From assembly GCA_963728565.1 (NCBI GenBank), contig CAVSLC010000028.1, positions 32,001-96,000 on the forward strand: a stretch of 64,000 nucleotides of DNA, in the 5' to 3' direction. A program made the position numbers and the translations under genes. Under the pieces are notes generated by a model, which did no database searches, was not told the DNA's origin, and was given only the letters and a program-made list of their open reading frames with translations. This DNA is from an uncultured delta proteobacterium (lineage in GTDB: Bacteria; Desulfobacterota; Binatia; UBA9968). Below, piece by piece: positions 17,684-34,972 of this stretch (positions are counted from its first letter, which is position 1; the number at the start of each line of letters is the position of its first letter).

Positions 17684-18688
17684 ATGGCGTTTAGGAAAAA
17701 TCTGCTGGCTTTGAGCTTCGTTCTTGGCTGGATTGGTTGCGCGTCGGTCACGGTCGCCGGCGCCCAGCTCGACACCGTCACTATCGGGTTTTCTTCCTTT
17801 TCAGGATTTTACGGTCCGTTGTGGCTGGCGGTCGAAGATGGTCTGGGTAAAAAGTACGGAGTGGATCTAAGAGCCGTCTACGCAGGCAGAGTCCGTCCCC
17901 AGCAATTGCTTGCCAGCGGCGAGACTCCCTTGGTGATTGCCTCGGGAAGCGGCGCCATGACCTCGCACGTTCTCGGCGTGAAGGACCAGGTGATCGTCGC
18001 GCTGCTCTCCAACAAAATGGGCGGCGGCATATTCTCCAAAAGCGAAATCAAAAGACCCGAAGACCTGAAGGGCAAGCTGATTGCCACCGGACGCCCAGGT
18101 GCTCTTAACGATGTTCTGGTCCGTTACGTGTTGACGCGCAAATGGGGACTCTCTCCCGATCGAGATGTAAAGCTGATGCCGATTGGAGAGCCGCCGCTCA
18201 TGCTGCAAGCTTTGGAACGGGGCGTTGTCGATGCAACTTCGTTGTCGGTTCCAGCGAGCTTCCTGGCCAAGAGCAAGGGATTCTTCGAGCTGGTCAACTA
18301 TGACGCCCTCGGATTGACCTATCCGCAGCATGCTGTAACCACCCTCCGACCGACGATTGCGAAGAATCCACAGATGATCGACGGAGTTTTGAAGGCCCTC
18401 ATCGAGTCCGTTGCGATTTTTAAAAGCAACAAACAAAAGAGTTTCGCTGTCTGGCGGAAATACATGCGGGGCGCGAGCGAGGAGTTTCTCGAGGACACCT
18501 ACCAGCACACCATCGCGGGACTGGAGGAGGTGCCGACACCTTCCGGGCAAGTGATTGCCAGTGCGCTCGACATGATTTCGGCCCATTATCCTCAAGCAAA
18601 ACAAACCGACCCGAATCTCATCGTCGATCCATCGTTCGTCCGGCGAATCGACCAGAGCGGATTTATCGCCGCCCTGTATAAAAAATAA
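17684..18688 (+). CDS. NMT1/SsuA-type ABC substrate-binding protein
   Basis: Signal peptide; IKRPEDLKGK, LSPDRDV, ALERGVVDA. Confidence 0.88.
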   Translation: MAFRKNLLALSFVLGWIGCASVTVAGAQLDTVTIGFSSFSGFYGPLWLAVEDGLGKKYGVDLRAVYAGRVRPQQLLASGETPLVIASGSGAMTSHVLGVKDQVIVALLSNKMGGGIFSKSEIKRPEDLKGKLIATGRPGALNDVLVRYVLTRKWGLSPDRDVKLMPIGEPPLMLQALERGVVDATSLSVPASFLAKSKGFFELVNYDALGLTYPQHAVTTLRPTIAKNPQMIDGVLKALIESVAIFKSNKQKSFAVWRKYMRGASEEFLEDTYQHTIAGLEEVPTPSGQVIASALDMISAHYPQAKQTDPNLIVDPSFVRRIDQSGFIAALYKK

Positions 18689-18962
18689 TTCATACAAATC
18701 CGTGTCGATCCGCAAATAGGTCGCGCCAAGCTGCGCGCCCTGCGCGACGGCGCTGCGATCACGCGCAAAGACTTGGTGGGTTGATTTGGAAGTACCTGTG
18801 CGGGATTAACGAAACATGAATGCCTGGCCTAATGTTTGACATAGTCGGTGTTTTCTTACATGGAGTAGTTGCAGAGACGGGTCACGGGGGCCTCCGCAAG
18901 GCAAGGAAAGTTTTCCCGGATATTGATCCGGAATCATAAAACGGAGATCAAGGAGAAGTGAA

Positions 18963-26638: not shown

Positions 26639-27658
26639 ATGCAGACTGTAGAGAATGAACGAGGTTATGCGATTATTTTCGTAACCGTCATGATTGTTCT
26701 GCTCCTGATCATGATCGGCATGGCGTTAGATAGCGGGCACCTCGCATACGTCAGATCACAGGGGCAGCCGGCAGTGGATGCGGCGGCTCTGGCGGCGGCT
26801 TCCGCAATACCAAGCGGAAATTGGTCAACCGTTACTAATCGGGCGGCCAAGTTTAATCCGGGCGGGAGTAATCCTGGTACCGGCAACAATTATCTAGACA
26901 GTCCTAATAATGCGATTGATCAGCAAAACGTGACGCTGGTGAAGTATGACAATGCGACTGGGGAATTTACCACCTCCGGGGTCAGCATCGCTAATGCTAA
27001 TGGAGCGCGCGTCGCGTTGGAAAACAAGAACCCTCACGGCGGCTCTGCGGGAGAAGCGATGAAGTCTCCATTGTTCTTGACGCCTCTGCTCAATCTATTC
27101 GGTCAAACCACAGAAGGCACTGCTAACGTGAGCGTCAGCGCGGTTGCTGTCAACCAGGCCCTTCCAGCACTACCAATTGTCGTCGTGGAAAGTGCCTGCG
27201 GTATGGATACAACGCTTGACTTACGGACGGGAGGTAAAGGAAATGCCGGCTGGGAAACTTACCAAATTGAGAACGCAAGCACAGATGAGGTCCGTGCCCT
27301 ATTTGAGAAGCTGCCCCAGTGCGCCGGCCAGCCGGCGATCGATGTCGGCTACTGTGGAAATATCGCCAATGGGGTGAACGCAACGATCTTTAATGAGCAC
27401 CTAAAGCCTATGTTCAAAGCTGACCCCAACCGGTGTTACTTAATTCCAGTAATCAAGAATGGCGGCAACTTGAACCAGTGCCAGATGATCACAGATTGGG
27501 CACGTTTCTGCCCCGATAAGGGGAATAACACAGCAGACGCATTCCCCGGGCAGGGTCAGCTCAAGGGCAGAGTTACTTGCGGCCAGAGTGTTCACGAGTC
27601 ACGGGATAGCCAATGTTTTGTTCAACGCCTGGTGCGAGATAAAACGTCAGGTATGTAA
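26639..27658 (+). CDS. tadG: TadG-like pilus protein with Cys-rich C-terminal domain
   Basis: ERG + hydrophobic helix + ALDSG...QPAVDAAALAAA (Tad N-terminal signature). Confidence 0.85.
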   Translation: MQTVENERGYAIIFVTVMIVLLLIMIGMALDSGHLAYVRSQGQPAVDAAALAAASAIPSGNWSTVTNRAAKFNPGGSNPGTGNNYLDSPNNAIDQQNVTLVKYDNATGEFTTSGVSIANANGARVALENKNPHGGSAGEAMKSPLFLTPLLNLFGQTTEGTANVSVSAVAVNQALPALPIVVVESACGMDTTLDLRTGGKGNAGWETYQIENASTDEVRALFEKLPQCAGQPAIDVGYCGNIANGVNATIFNEHLKPMFKADPNRCYLIPVIKNGGNLNQCQMITDWARFCPDKGNNTADAFPGQGQLKGRVTCGQSVHESRDSQCFVQRLVRDKTSGM

Positions 27659-27688
27659 GGATTCACGGGCGATTGTGGTCGGGGGTCA

Positions 27689-28281
27689 CTCATTAAAAGC
27701 TTGTCAAGCTCTCGTTTAGATGTACCTCTTCACGGGAGGCGTGGGGTTAGTCTAATCACCCACACTGCCGTTGTTTGCGACCAGAGTTCTGTTCGGTCTC
27801 GGTCGACAATTCGGTCAGTCACTCATCCGTGCTCTTCGGCACATTATTGAATTCGACTCTGGTCTCCTAATCAAATCTTCGGATCTCCGGTTTAGGCCGG
27901 GACCATGACCCCAGGAGGATGACCAGAGACGTCGGTAACTTTTTTTCGCCCAGGTACAGCCATAAGTCGTTGCCGAGGTCTGTGACGCTTAAACGACTCA
28001 CTTCGCTTTAGCATGGCGTAAATGACATCGAAAAATAACTTTCCAACGCCGCTTGAGTCACAGGTACAGTAACCTTGCTGGTTGTCTTTCCCTGTCGATC
28101 TTTCTTTACCACCACGGCCTTGCGCTTCCTCAGGTCCACTCCTACATACTCTTTCATGCTGCACCTCCTTTAGGCTTAGGCGACTCCTCACAGAATCAGC
28201 CTGGTATAATGTTGGTCCATTAGAGATCGTCACCGCCCATTTGCGAGGTGCAGCTCACATCCCTAGCTTTTCATTTAATCA
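27689..28281 (-). mobile_element. Internally deleted IS1111-type (IS110 family) element, 593 bp
   Basis: AAGGAGG + MKEYVGVDLRKRKAVVVKKDRQG (28157, DEDD N-terminus) joined near 28030 to C-terminal VIYAMLK... (stop 27892); sub-terminal IRs ATGAAAAGCT (28274-28265) and AGCTTTTAAT (27701-27692), 7 and 3 nt from the ends; TTGACA at 27707-27702. Confidence 0.85.
27810..27930 (-). ncRNA. Putative bridge/seek RNA of the IS1111-type element
   Basis: Stem 27913-27928/27857-27868 encloses GGGGTCA (27912-27906) and AAGATTTGA (27879-27871), matching both strands of the insertion site; GTGC-CGAAGA-GCAC hairpin followed by ATGAGTGA (27826-27819) matching the circle junction; boundaries approximate. Confidence 0.7.
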
Positions 28282-28302
28282 AGTCTTGCGGTGCCACCCT
28301 GT

Positions 28303-28720
28303 TCAAGTTGTTTGCTCGATCTGTTTGAGTCTGCGGCTCACCGTTTCATCGTGAACGCGCGAATGCGCGGCAATCTCATCAAGCCCGTACCTACGATCGT
28401 ATGCCTCGGCTATCGCTCTGTTTCCGCTTTGCAAATATCCGCGCCAGCGTCGGCTTGGCAGCTCTTAACTGTACCGCGGAAATTCTTTAAGATTCCGATT
28501 CGGAGCTGCGTGCTTCTCGATAATGATTCGCTCCCTAAATAGATCTCCCTTTTAGCTCTTCCTATGGCCGCCGCGCCGCTCCGTCTCTGACGAGTTCCGG
28601 GACTGCTTCCTCCGCTTGTGCCGTCACTTGCCGAATTGCGCGAGGATCCGATCGGTGCTTAGAATTCTTCCCGGGCCACTCAGCGGTCTCTCTGTAACTG
28701 CTCCATTTCCAACTCTGAGG
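28303..28720 (-). pseudogene. Decayed 3' half of a Y1 (RAYT-like) transposase with C-terminal HTH
   Basis: Fragments WKWSSYRETA, IYLGSES, EIAAHSRVHDETVSRRLKQIEQ across several frameshifts. Confidence 0.7.
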
Positions 28721-28737
28721 CTCCATATTCCACTCTC

Positions 28738-29745
28738 CTATCTGAACATTTCCCTGAACTTCTTGCTCCAGCTCTCCAGCTCTTCTTTACTCGGCAGCCG
28801 CATTACGACGATTTGATCGTCTTTCACATCTTTTTTGAACTTGTGGTCGGCCTCGGGGTGGAACACGTACTCGCCGTAATTGCCGAAGATGGTTTGCGCT
28901 TCAGGGCCAACAAAAAAATCCGTGAACAGGCGCGCCGCATTGGGGTGCGGCGCTTGCCGGTTGATCGCCACGAAGCTCAGCGAGGACAGGTATTTGTTCA
29001 TGCGCACGTACTCGATCGGTCCCGGATACTGGTATTTATCTTTGATGTAGCCGAGCGCAACCTGCACCTCTCCGGAAGTCAGCGGCTGGATCGTATCCGC
29101 AAGGCTCCGTCCGACCCGCGGATCGTTTTTCGCCCAGCCTTCAACGACCTGCAGCCATTTCGGGCCGATGAGCTTGTCGAGATTGAGAACGAACTGCAGT
29201 GTGGTCACGTGGATCCCAGGATTGGCCATGCCGAACTTGCCCTTCCACTTGGGATCGACCATTTCTTCCCAGGTCTTCGGCGCCTCCGATGTTTTCAAGA
29301 GCTGATGGTTGAAGTTGATGCCGTATGGGAGCACGCGCCAGGGCGTCATCTTTTTGTCCGCGTCGAGAAACTGCTTGGGATAGCCTTTTGCCGCTGGTGG
29401 CTCGAATACAGCAAAGAGATTTTTCTCATCGAGGCTGGCCATGACGACTTCATTGCCGAGGGTCACGTCGAATCCTGGCTTGCCCGCCCGCGCCTCGGCT
29501 AGCGAACGATTGATCAGCTCAGTCGCGTCGCCGCGCCAGTGGCGCAATTTGACGCCGTATTTCTTCTCGAAGGCGTCGCCGATGGCTTTCGCTGAACTGA
29601 CGGTGATGGCGCCGTAGAACATCACCTCGCCTTCCTTCTTCGCCGCTTCGATCAGCTCCGGGGTGATCTGCGCCACAAGGGTGATAGGTAACGTAAAAAC
29701 AAGCACGGCGATGGTCAGCGCCGCCCGCAAAACACGGTGCAACAT
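28738..29745 (-). CDS. Extracellular solute-binding protein
   Basis: AAKKEGEVMFY, APKTWEEMVDPKWKG, APHPNAARLF; GAGGAGG RBS. Confidence 0.88.
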   Translation of the reverse strand: MLHRVLRAALTIAVLVFTLPITLVAQITPELIEAAKKEGEVMFYGAITVSSAKAIGDAFEKKYGVKLRHWRGDATELINRSLAEARAGKPGFDVTLGNEVVMASLDEKNLFAVFEPPAAKGYPKQFLDADKKMTPWRVLPYGINFNHQLLKTSEAPKTWEEMVDPKWKGKFGMANPGIHVTTLQFVLNLDKLIGPKWLQVVEGWAKNDPRVGRSLADTIQPLTSGEVQVALGYIKDKYQYPGPIEYVRMNKYLSSLSFVAINRQAPHPNAARLFTDFFVGPEAQTIFGNYGEYVFHPEADHKFKKDVKDDQIVVMRLPSKEELESWSKKFREMFR

Positions 29746-29864: not shown

Positions 29865-29980
29865 GGGGCCGGTCCTGCGATACCACATTGTTCAATTCCT
29901 GTGCTCGATGTTTGAGCCTGCGGCTCACTGTAGTTTAATGAAATCCAAAGGGGCGGCAATCTCATGAAGGCGGCGATCGT
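29865..29980 (-). pseudogene. Second remnant of the Y1-transposase 3' end with its uninterrupted terminal motif
   Basis: Aligns with 28282-28385 (EIAAP...TVSRRLK); begins GGGGCCGGTCCTGCGATACCACATTGTTCAA. Confidence 0.7.
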
Positions 29981-32324: not shown

Positions 32325-33292
32325 GGGGCCAGGCTTTCTATTCTAGACAATCTTCCACGTATCCGGGTGCTTTGCTTTCTCCACTCTTCCTCCTCGGCAA
32401 TGCGCTGCGAATACCGCAACGCTTGGCAACATCCTTGAGCTTATAACCCAGCCGCCGGATCAGGACGTAACCGACCAGCGCTCAATGCCGTGACATCTGC
32501 CAACTCCGGTCCACTCCCGAAAGCACCTCCGGATCGACCTCAAGCGCTCGCGCAGCGTGCCGAAAGGCAATCATCGCTGTTTTCTTGGATCGCGCTGTTT
32601 CCGGCTCCTCGTCCACTCGGGCTGTGAGCTTTTCAATAAACCGCTCTTCTCCCAACAACCGCTGGTCTTTTACGGCGTAATATCCCTGCCGATGCCCATC
32701 CCGGAGGCCTTCCTGGATAATCGCTGGTACGATCGGCGCCCGCCCAGCATGTTCAGGACCCGGCTTGTCTGTAGCGCTTCACTGACTCGAACACCGCAGT
32801 ACTCGGGATGGCCGCTGTACGCATAGTCATCGAGCCGTTGGACAAGCTTGGCTCTGATCGGATTCAGATGAATGTAGCGAACCAGAGTTAATAAATATTC
32901 GTCTTTTTCACACACGATCGCTTTATAGCGGCCTTGAAAGAGATGCCCCATCTTGTGGTGCTTGCGGTTAAAGTACTGCGTATAGGATTGTTGCAGCCCC
33001 TGCATGATTTCGAGAGCGGCTCGGAGCCGGTCTCGAGCAGGAGGTCAACATGGTTCGACATCAAGCAATAGGCATAAACCGTCACGCCGAATCGTTTCCG
33101 ATAGCGCGCCAGTCTCTCCAGATAGGCCTCGTAGTCGCGACCATTTGAGAATATCTTCTGCCTATAGTTACCACGTACGATCACGCGATAGAGAATCCCC
33201 GAGGCAAACAATCGCGGCCGTCGCGCCATTCAATGCGTCTGTCAAACCTACCGCGCCGGCGTCGAGATTCACAAGACTTAAAAGCCTGACCC
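32325..33292 (-). mobile_element. Decayed Y1 (RAYT-like) transposase element with inverted terminal motifs
   Basis: MARRPRL...RGNYRQ, AYCLMSNHVD (HUH damaged), GHLFQGRYKA, RYIHLNP; several frameshifts; bounded by GGGGCCAGGCTTT (32325) and AAAGCCTGACCC (33281-33292). Confidence 0.85.
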
Positions 33293-33853: not shown

Positions 33854-34972
33854 ATGGCGATTATCGATTTGGATTCCCACTTTCGCGACGGCTGGCTGCT
33901 CGACGAGATTTATCAGTTGCCGGAGCCGTTTGCGCGCCACTCGCCGAGGCGCATCGGCGCGGGCAAATATTTTTATTCCAGGTTCGAGCACGACCTCTCT
34001 CCCATGGACGATCCCGTAGCCAATGCGAATTTCAAAAAACCGGTGACCCATCAGGTTTTTTATAACCCTGAAGCAAACCAGCGCGGCAACGAGGTCATGC
34101 GCTGGCAGCAGGGCGGCTACGACATGGAATACCGCCTGAAGGACAATGCCCGCGAGAACATCGACTTTCAATTGATCTTCCCTACCGGCATCGACATTCC
34201 GTCGCAGAATGCCGGCCCGCTCGGCGCGGCCGTATCGCGGTCATACAACGATTGGGCACATAAGCTCGTGGGCGGCTATCGCGATCGGCTCTCGCCCGTC
34301 GCCATGATGCCCGCCGGGTGTCCGGAAGAAATGGCCAACGAATTACGCCGTTGCGTCAAGGATTTGGGCTGCAAAGCCGCCCACCTTGTCAGTTACACCA
34401 AAGAGCGGCAGATGGATGATGCGGTTTTTTTCCCGTTCTATGAAGCGGCGCAGGAACTCGATATCCCGCTTTTCTGCCATCCGAGTACGCTCGGCGATGT
34501 CGGCACACTGATCAATCGTCAAAGTCATTTCTTTCCGATGCATATTCTCGGCCGGCCGCTCAACTGCGTCGCGCCGCTGGTGGCGATGGTTCTCGGCGGG
34601 ATTTTCGAAAAGTACCCGAAATTGAAAGTCGTCTTCTTCGAAGTGACCGCCGAATTCCTGGTGTTCTGGATGCACCGCATGGATGACGATTACGAAGTCA
34701 TCAAGGATGCCGGCATGTGCCCGCAGCTGAGCATGTTGCCGTCGGACTACGTCAGGCGGAACTGTTACGTTACCTGTGAAGCCGATGAGAAATGTCTGCC
34801 CTTGGCGTTGGCCGAGGTCGGCGACACCCACGTTCTGATGGCGACGGACTATCCCCACTTCGATTCGACCTTCCCCAAAACGGTAAGCGGTATTCGCGAG
34901 CGGCCGGATATTTCCCCGAAACAAAAGAAACTGATCCTCGAAGAGAACGCGCTCAATCTGATCCATATGTAG
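33854..34972 (+). CDS. Amidohydrolase_2 family protein
   Basis: IIDLDSH, LFCHP, ATDYPHFD, ENA; GAGGAG RBS. Confidence 0.9.
   Translation: MAIIDLDSHFRDGWLLDEIYQLPEPFARHSPRRIGAGKYFYSRFEHDLSPMDDPVANANFKKPVTHQVFYNPEANQRGNEVMRWQQGGYDMEYRLKDNARENIDFQLIFPTGIDIPSQNAGPLGAAVSRSYNDWAHKLVGGYRDRLSPVAMMPAGCPEEMANELRRCVKDLGCKAAHLVSYTKERQMDDAVFFPFYEAAQELDIPLFCHPSTLGDVGTLINRQSHFFPMHILGRPLNCVAPLVAMVLGGIFEKYPKLKVVFFEVTAEFLVFWMHRMDDDYEVIKDAGMCPQLSMLPSDYVRRNCYVTCEADEKCLPLALAEVGDTHVLMATDYPHFDSTFPKTVSGIRERPDISPKQKKLILEENALNLIHM

Follow-up and report, generated by a model that had tools for sequence, protein, structure and literature searches.

Is an insertion sequence (IS) that has lost its transposase gene, and has kept both ends and the DNA for an RNA guide matching its own site, still a mobile element or only a relic of one? 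This question is raised by a 593-bp element at positions 27689-28281 of a 64,000-nt stretch of DNA from an uncultured delta proteobacterium (the window), where it lies on the minus strand, on which all sequence features are read. Its sequence confirms it as a transposase-less remnant of an IS1111-type IS (IS110 family) with its ends and guide region (Table 1). A preliminary description of the locus had gone further and proposed a non-autonomous element mobilisable in trans. Of this, the missing recombinase, the readable ends and the guide for its own site stand, while mobilisation in trans has no support beyond being a possibility: the element is single-copy in its genome, its junction was seen nowhere else in the metagenome contigs and 89 other family genomes searched, and the only cognate gene found in the genome is frameshifted. 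We consider it probably a one-off internal-deletion derivative of an RNA-guided IS1111-type IS, a fossil that occupies a near-cognate target and has most likely become immobile.

The source genome is a metagenome-assembled one of 28 contigs and 4.53 Mb (80.55% complete, 5.84% contaminated). The preliminary description had allowed that the element might lack a parent, and BLAST found one in the same genome, on another contig (C15:~23358-24773), about 1.4 kb in length and the sole longer copy there. The element matches it at 93% over nt 4-254 and at 97% over nt 255-593, with ~820 bp of the parent in between. Compared with full-length copies, nt 1-253 and 255-593 of the element align to their two ends at 93-97% nucleotide identity, the deletion consisting of ~825 bp of the transposase gene (nt 254-1078 in the numbering of L005). 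The latter, which a scan of species-representative genomes found in a congeneric genome (G006), is a close relative with an intact 362-aa open reading frame (ORF) and non-coding flanks of 125 nt upstream and 203 nt downstream of this ORF. The parent encodes DEDD_Tnp_IS110 (PF01548, 4.5e-21) and Transposase_20 (PF02371, 6.8e-15), the intact relative has the same two domains at 3.5e-20 and 6.4e-24, and its transposase matches NF033542, 'IS110 family RNA-guided transposase', at 2e-67. Relative to L005, the parent gene is frameshifted by a 4-nt deletion (agcgg[cagg]atcacc) that leaves ORFs of 277 and 85 aa, and the copy also exceeds L005 by one C in the left extension and by 3 nt in the region of the right inverted repeat. 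We could not find any intact cognate transposase gene in the 80.55%-complete source genome. Two further PF01548 matches are present there, one open and one broken, and the only other open IS110-family gene found (C15:35474-36490) codes for a 338-aa protein 27% identical to that of L005. In metagenomes, 20 loci match the L005 protein at 34-92% identity. Judged by nucleotide identity, the 593-bp element descends from a ~1.4-kb element encoding a 362-aa DEDD transposase.

What is left of this gene are two pieces in different frames. A ribosome-binding site (AAGGAGG, 28170-28164) precedes a residual ORF that starts with an ATG at 28157, reads MKEYVGVD...ESYFS and contains the first D of DEDD (YVGVD). 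The last transposase codons span 28027-27895, and their TAA stop (27894-27892) sits in the hairpin loop of the target loop described below. The preliminary description had seen the ribosome-binding site and ~42 N-terminal codons fused near 28030 to the transposase C-terminus, with the target loop overlapping the last codons. Alignment to the full-length copies puts the number at 43 codons and the junction at 28028-30, and the overlap is real. We could find neither an evident microhomology nor a TGA core in the junction sequence. The N-terminal piece has a weak Pfam match to DEDD_Tnp_IS110 (PF01548, E=0.06), and a Pfam search with the C-terminal piece gave no match. Since its own matches are weak or lacking, the window copy is assigned to the IS110 family through its 93-97% nucleotide identity to full-length copies; by that route the peptide fragments do derive from an IS110-family gene, which the preliminary description had left in doubt.

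That the deletion is an artefact, the true locus being full-length and the assembler having lost 825 bp, appears very improbable to us. The junction is without a repeat or common word able to collapse the assembly graph, the two halves differ by 3-7% from the C15 copy and are thus not that copy mis-joined, and L055, an unrelated metagenome contig, shows the same kind of deletion. An artefact would fit with the absence of any independent contig crossing 28028-28030, with a metagenome-assembled genome at 5.84% contamination, and with contigs from runs X1 and X15 that cover 27964-28027 and continue at 28027 into full-length transposase sequence, although these may stem from other full-length copies.

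Both ends of the element appear well preserved. Its sub-terminal inverted repeats (IRs) match at 9/10 positions, 7 nt (left) and 3 nt (right) inside the ends, a count that holds if the common TGA is assigned to the left end. Because TGA is present both in the left extension and in the right flank, it acts as a core and makes the boundary of the element ambiguous by 3 nt; as nothing beyond these 3 nt is common to the two junctions, there is no larger target duplication. The left end TGATTAAATG is found in 13 of the 15 loci whose left end was located by pattern, the exceptions being the C15 parent (TGACTTAAATG) and L008 (TGATTAAATGAG), and L055 has a further variant (TGATTAAGTG). The right IR of relatives reads GCTTTTCATGAG, so that the A at 27694 is a C-to-A change private to the window copy; in L005 the IRs (ATGAAAAGC and GCTTTTCAT) match at 9/9 positions. 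TTGACA stands at equal distance from the right end in most relatives, and its position 13 nt from that end means that joined ends would place it 16 nt before TTAAAT, with the IRs then 10 nt apart. All of this geometry (IR spacing, 9/10 match, 10-nt joined gap, TTGACA-16 nt-TTAAAT) was already in the preliminary description and is borne out on reading the sequence. In the linear 593-bp element, a promoter and terminator scan detected no promoter-like site and no terminator.

The region downstream of the former gene is predicted to fold into a guide RNA with two loops. We aligned 20 of 21 homologous 3' regions (L049, identical there to L048, was dropped), and both RNAalifold and explicit pair counts support the outer stem and inner hairpin of the target-binding loop as well as the hairpin of the second loop. 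Paired cells amount to 96.9%, and four pairs (19 cells) have changed on both sides, for example in the outer stem, where CG occurs in 11 homologues and UA in 8. The covariation score was reached by 0/500 shuffles, and slid controls were 29-45% paired. The variable columns of the alignment are those of the hairpin, of the 3' guide and of the bases just 5' of GGGG. As a single sequence, the 257-nt region folds with z = -3.45. The guide positions (27912-27906, 27879-27871 and 27826-27819) and stem strands (27928-27913 with 27857-27868) of the preliminary description are correct, and its target-loop stems now have the support of compensatory changes. The outer stem of the target loop has a competitor in an alternative 8-bp helix of 27855-27862 with 27779-27786; this helix is 93.8% paired in the 20 homologues, has one covarying pair (GC 10, AU 7, GU 2), and its partner CUCUGGUC lies 75 nt downstream of the 3' strand of the outer stem. 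The alternative helix might serve to switch the RNA between a precursor and a mature form. When 27000-29000 was compared with Rfam at E<=1, the sole match was a chance one to sR14, at 14.6 bits where the gathering score is 38. No curated Rfam family covers the guide RNA.

The two segments matching the target, GGGGTCA and AAGATTTGA, occupy opposite sides of one internal loop. The insertion site of L005 (caaaagatt/.../tgaccccgg, that is AAGATT-TGA-CCCC; slashes denote junctions) is a perfect match to both. The site of the window copy, AAGACT-TGA-CCCC, has one mismatch, or 6/6 matches if rU:dG wobble is admitted, the RNA pairing with the bottom strand, and that of the C15 parent (CATACT-TGA-CCCC) has three mismatches to its guide. 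When the 257-nt 3' region was shuffled 20000 times by mononucleotide, 9 shuffles contained the two target matches at once and 1 had them in the correct order within 80 nt; the donor-type motif ATGAGTGA arose in 82.

Across relatives, the 5' guide is nearly invariant, (N)GGGGUCA, and 22 of the 28 loci whose right end was located by pattern continue beyond it with TGACCC; the sole variant with a shorter G run, L033 (CUGGGUCA), is flanked by TGACCCA. All located insertions read ...YY/TGA at the left and TGA(C)CC... at the right, in a single orientation, with TGA as the only common nucleotides. L053 and L088 sit, as does L005, in CAACAAAAGATT/TGA, and L047 is flanked by AGACT/TGA, as is the window copy. 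The 3' guide falls into three 7-nt classes (GAAGAUU, GAAUACU and AAGUGCC) among the 11 elements having both guide and left flank. Matches of each guide to its own flank exceed those of permuted pairings (permutation test, n=11 elements, P=0.006, or 0.034 with wobble), P-values that overstate the case because the elements are kin. Most of the signal is contributed by positions -1 and -2, where UU/CU goes with TT/CT and CC with CC/TC, and L042 has the guide GAAUACU at a TATACT flank. On this comparison, the variable 3' guide seems to track the left flank only modestly. In L043, L046, L048 and L049, AAGUGCC stands at AAGACC/TGA, with 3-4/7 matches, 5-6 with wobble and a full match with a bulged U. 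The left flank of the C15 parent suits the guide of L042 (GAAUACU) better than its own (GAAGAUU).

Concerning the second loop, ATGAGTGA corresponds to the final 5 nt at the right end followed by the TGA core, as the preliminary description had noted in pointing to the donor junction, and the loop's AUGAGUGA fits a donor guide. This motif and the element ends are almost invariant, so that covariation cannot test the donor pairing. For the right donor guide, previously described as only partial and indeed so in the sequence, we tried AAUUCA (one extra base) and AUU[C/U]AAUAA against TGATTAAAT, and neither register is convincing, the columns hardly varying. We also discarded an outer stem of the second loop formed in the window copy by GTCGAATTC and GAATTGTCGAC, which is not conserved, relatives reading GACCGATTGGTC.

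Table 1. Coordinates of the element, its flanks and its predicted RNA features in the window
Feature	Positions	Strand	Basis or remark
Whole 593-bp element, internal-deletion derivative of a ~1417-bp IS1111-type IS	27689..28281	-	identity to full-length copies
Left target half, cgcaagact	28282..28290	-	read from sequence
Left terminal extension, TGATTAA, 7 nt	28275..28281	-	read from sequence; reads gcaagact/TGATTAA
Left sub-terminal IR, ATGAAAAGCT	28265..28274	-	9/10 complementary to 27692-27701
Residual ORF: 43 transposase N-terminal codons, 6 out-of-frame codons and stop	28008..28157	-	ORF reading; Pfam
Deletion junction	28028..28030	-	alignment to full-length copies
Last ~45 transposase codons and stop, in a frame differing from that of the N-terminal piece	27892..28027	-	alignment to full-length copies
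Predicted target-binding stem-loop: outer stem, internal loop with two guides, inner hairpin 27882-27904	27858..27927	-	RNAalifold and pair counts
Putative 5' guide, GGGGTCA, complement of the top strand of right target half and core (TGACCCC)	27906..27912	-	read from sequence
Putative 3' guide AAGATTTGA, identical to left target half and core	27871..27879	-	8/9 here, 9/9 in L005
Predicted second (donor-type) loop: hairpin 27828-27843, then ATGAGTGA at 27819-27826	27819..27856	-	sequence and RNAalifold
CTCTGGTC, possible pairing partner of the 3' strand of the outer stem in the target loop	27779..27786	-	alignment pair counts
TTGACA, candidate -35 of a promoter formed only on end joining	27702..27707	-	13 nt from right end
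Right sub-terminal IR AGCTTTTAAT (27692-27701) and 3-nt extension GAG (27689-27691)	27689..27701	-	read from sequence
Right target half, tgaccccc	27681..27688	-	read from sequence

By the mechanism published for IS1111 and IS110 elements, the parent would excise as a circle whose abutted ends (...TTGACA-N13 / TGATTAAAT...) would form a promoter, and the resulting transcript would be a transposase mRNA with the guide RNA in its 3' part. In the first internal loop, GGGGUCA would pair with the top strand of TGACCCC and GAAGAUUUGA with the bottom strand of AAGAYT-TGA, the AUGAGUGA of the second loop would match right end and core, and recombination would take place at the common TGA without duplication. 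As the window copy could supply ends and guide and no enzyme, any movement would require that a transposase be provided by another source.

The placement within the IS1111 type agrees with what is published. In the parts of Siddiquee et al. 2024 (PMC11187229) on which we draw, the hallmarks of the group are 7/3-nt extensions, sub-terminal IRs, a junction promoter and a 3' non-coding region, so that those called established in the preliminary description are indeed in print; the same parts place the top-strand complement 5' of the bottom-strand complement in the guide RNA, and give a usual IR length of 11-13 bp, against 7-17 bp in the corresponding part of PMC11208160. The parent and L005 both combine an N-terminal DEDD/RuvC-like PF01548 with a C-terminal PF02371, as required of the IS110 family, to which the window copy belongs through its DNA identity. 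We found 7/3-nt extensions, a longer non-coding region downstream of the gene, no target duplication, site- and orientation-specific insertion, and IRs (9/10 in the window copy, 9/9 in L005) at the short end of the published range. The predicted RNA likewise has the top-strand complement first, with an overlap at the crossover. The transposase has the motif GL-P----S(T)G as GLVPSIYSSG and is only ~25% identical to that of IS4321/IS5075 over residues 5-282 (77% of its length, E=9e-9), so that by its protein the place in the IS1111 group is tentative; the structures available for comparison in the PDB are of the IS110 group only. No close relative came out of plasmid searches, in which the best protein was 40.7% identical and the DNA gave three weak matches.

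Does this remnant move? Both of its ends, its small size and the lack of a transposase gene are those of a miniature transposable element with inverted repeats (MITE), which would also be expected in several copies or with signs of mobilisation, and we found one copy. Within the source genome, BLAST and an nhmmer profile of the 3' region recovered the element and the C15 copy only. The search for further 593-bp copies proposed in the preliminary description turned up none in its own genome or in 89 others of the family (a set of 90 that includes the source genome and the unpublished G068, which serves in such family-wide tallies and for no other claim), and a 24-mer across the deletion junction had 0 matches in metagenome contigs. 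We further compared the element with the contigs, not the reads, of four runs (24 are listed). One soil DNA run holds the right junction of the window insertion, and full-length copies were found elsewhere; circle junction, empty site and deletion junction were not seen in these contigs, whose uncovered parts prove nothing. Contigs labelled as RNA that cover the guide region were considered as transcripts of the window copy and rejected, as they derive from full-length copies or from relatives of another guide class.

Could the element nevertheless have arrived as a mini, an active MITE with its own guide RNA that is mobilised in trans by a full-length relative? It has kept intact its ends, its sub-terminal IRs, the -35/-10 geometry at the junction and the two RNA loops, a synthetic ISEc11 mini-IS with ends of 50 bp and 46 bp moves with transposase and seekRNA in trans (PMC11187229, in the part on which we draw), and soil runs hold full-length copies with near-identical 3' regions. 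Two more independent minis, L055 and L008, are known among relatives, and the three left breakpoints fall within ~30 nt. Against this, the element is single-copy, with a junction absent from metagenome contigs and from the 89 other family genomes, no mini has been seen at two sites, the cognate transposase of the same genome is broken and the right IR carries a private change. On balance, we regard current activity as rather unlikely.

Of the two other minis, L055:169-924, on a metagenome contig, measures 756 bp and retains the two ends and the two RNA loops, together with N- and C-terminal fragments fused in frame; its flanks (gtcatgcc/.../tgaccccc) fit its guides. L008:~1488-1826 (equal to G006:C5:~18613-18951) is a ~340-bp mini without a target loop. 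Their left breakpoints lie at element nt ~249 and ~225, respectively, and that of the window copy at ~253.

Pieces with guide and right end and without transposase are far commoner than the gene: the DNA of the mini is matched in 18/90 family genomes (source genome and G068 included), as opposed to 3/90 for the protein (E<=1e-60). No tblastn match was obtained in 22 of the 25 loci examined, and for 16 of these 22 the sequence extends 1.5 kb upstream. The point of truncation differs among the remnant loci (L015-L020, L028, L031, L033-L035, L037, L078, L079, L082, L084, L086, L087, L090 and L093), and one remnant (L078:~1440-1700, genome G065) starts exactly at the 3' guide (...ctctc/GAAGATTTGATTAGGAG...). 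In a copy inserted at a perfect target, the left junction has twelve nucleotides (AAGATTTGATTA) in common with the DNA encoding the 3' guide. This likeness could drive 5' deletions or small circles, an idea drawn from a single case. A broader scheme appears doubtful to us, in which IS1111-type elements of this soil lineage repeatedly yield guide-carrying MITEs that move via the transposase of a relative and compete for it or redirect it, the breakpoint cluster at nt ~225-253 marking a cis-acting left-end region and the remnants being a by-product of guide DNA that mimics the left junction (AAGATTTGATTA).

The same abundance might suggest a retained orphan guide locus, its RNA kept for another role such as supplying or titrating guide for related transposases: the DNA of the mini is matched in 18/90 family genomes and the transposase in 3/90, and of the 16 loci with 1.5 kb upstream and no tblastn match, four keep both loops. 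We judge this highly unlikely. The varying truncation points and the many remnants without target loop are what decay would leave, the linear element has no promoter-like site in our scan, and elements unable to excise accumulate as fossils anyway.

Several points weigh against the preferred reading of a one-off, immobile fossil. All cis parts (ends, IRs, -35/-10 geometry, both RNA loops) look usable. Private substitutions occur at 17/327 family-invariant positions, mostly as alignment noise at the junction, compared with 0-18 in other copies, and because this is no clear excess, recent activity of the window copy is conceivable. With the genome 80.55% complete, an intact helper transposase may be unassembled, and the two independent minis in relatives hint that such derivatives persist or recur. 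The deletion junction is backed by this one assembly, and no RNA, circle or empty site was observed in the material compared, which consists of contigs only. As for the target, the guide/flank statistic comes from 11 related elements, and the largest guide class, AAGUGCC, is found mostly at AAGACC flanks, a poor match without wobble or bulge. As it stands, the element is a well-preserved, ordinary decay product with no sign of movement of its own.

Only two perfect empty targets are present in the source genome (C7:33788-33806 and 34786-34804), both within 28-nt inverted repeats. Between these repeats lies a 319-aa gene, the whole forming a ~1-kb unit (G000:C7:33776-34816, L062:1288-2306), and the protein has a Y1_Tnp domain (2.7e-12), a DnaA-C-like helix-turn-helix (HTH) and a below-cutoff match to the model of the REP-associated tyrosine transposase (RAYT). 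RAYT-like fragments are also present at window ~32727-33229 and in several places on C15. The C15 parent sits in TAGCTAACTCCATACT/TGACCCC, and an uninterrupted 23-mer copy of its site is found 3 kb downstream (C15:27709-27731), beside a RAYT-like fragment that is truncated. In the left flank, the final ~100 nt belong to a three-copy repeat, 74-80% identical (window 28282-28385, G000:C1:8610-8712 and window 29872-29969), with coding capacity for an HTH-like C-terminus; in C1, the equivalent position is bordered by another IS110-family element, which is broken and oppositely oriented. We could not find any similarity between the HTH fragment left of the element and the C7 RAYT protein at E<=1.

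Synteny with five genomes of the same genus extends as far as 27667 and is lost there, 21 nt away from the element's right end, which indicates that the target-bearing sequence is itself an insertion relative to these genomes; the next 1.5 kb past the break in G006 and G005 have no match in the 64-kb window. The element is intergenic and disrupts neither of its neighbours, which code for a TadE/G-like Flp pilus assembly protein (26639-27658, plus strand) and an extracellular solute-binding protein (28738-29745, minus strand).

These data add an IS1111-type family, as yet without a name, that occurs in uncultured soil bacteria and whose guide-to-target code, AAGAYT/TGACCCC, can be read, and provide in the 593-bp element a natural example of the minimal cis set of ends plus guide. 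Should the minis be shown to move, no earlier case of a natural, non-autonomous IS1111 derivative carrying its guide would precede them in the literature searched, supplements not covered, and they would offer compact substrates for bridge/seekRNA recombination assays.

Among the known systems, ISEc11, ISPa11 and ISKpn4 (PMC11187229) are similar in their sub-terminal IRs, 7/3-nt extensions, long downstream non-coding region and absence of target duplication, as well as in the guide order with an overlap at the crossover and in a -35 carried by the right end and a -10 by the left. They differ in having IRs of 11-13 bp, against 9-10 bp here, and transposases of 330-350 aa, against 362 aa, and the window copy has no transposase gene at all. 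By the statements of the papers (PMC11187229, PMC11208160), ISPa11, which targets REPs, and IS4321/IS5075, which target the terminal IRs of the Tn21 family, choose repeats or the ends of mobile DNA, comparable to the perfect targets here in the inverted repeats around a RAYT gene; the target sequence here is a different, low-copy one, with two empty sites in the source genome and none in G006. The bridge RNA of IS621 (PMC11208160; PDB 8wt6) resembles the predicted RNA in its target and donor internal loops, each strand including the core, and the C-terminal half of the transposase matches IS621 at E=3.6e-15. Unlike in IS621, the RNA is here at the 3' end and not at the 5' end, its guides come in the reverse order, the element has long sub-terminal IRs and the right donor guide is not convincingly identified. 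The synthetic ISEc11 mini-IS (PMC11187229), composed of ends and cargo and moved in trans, also has ends without a transposase gene, while the window element is natural, has its guide gene in cis and is known here from sequence alone. In the literature searched, supplements not covered, we found no report of a natural IS1111 mini carrying its own guide, the sole precedent being MITEPpu9 with the ssr9 gene of ISPpu9 (IS110 group, PMC12288879), which is different in kind. This too is a small transposase-less module with IS-end-like borders and a small-RNA gene, proposed, in the part of that paper used here, to hitch-hike on the IS transposase. In contrast to our element, which is present in one copy, it occurs in eight copies and circles have been detected, and its Ssr9 RNA is not a guide and is not needed for transposition.

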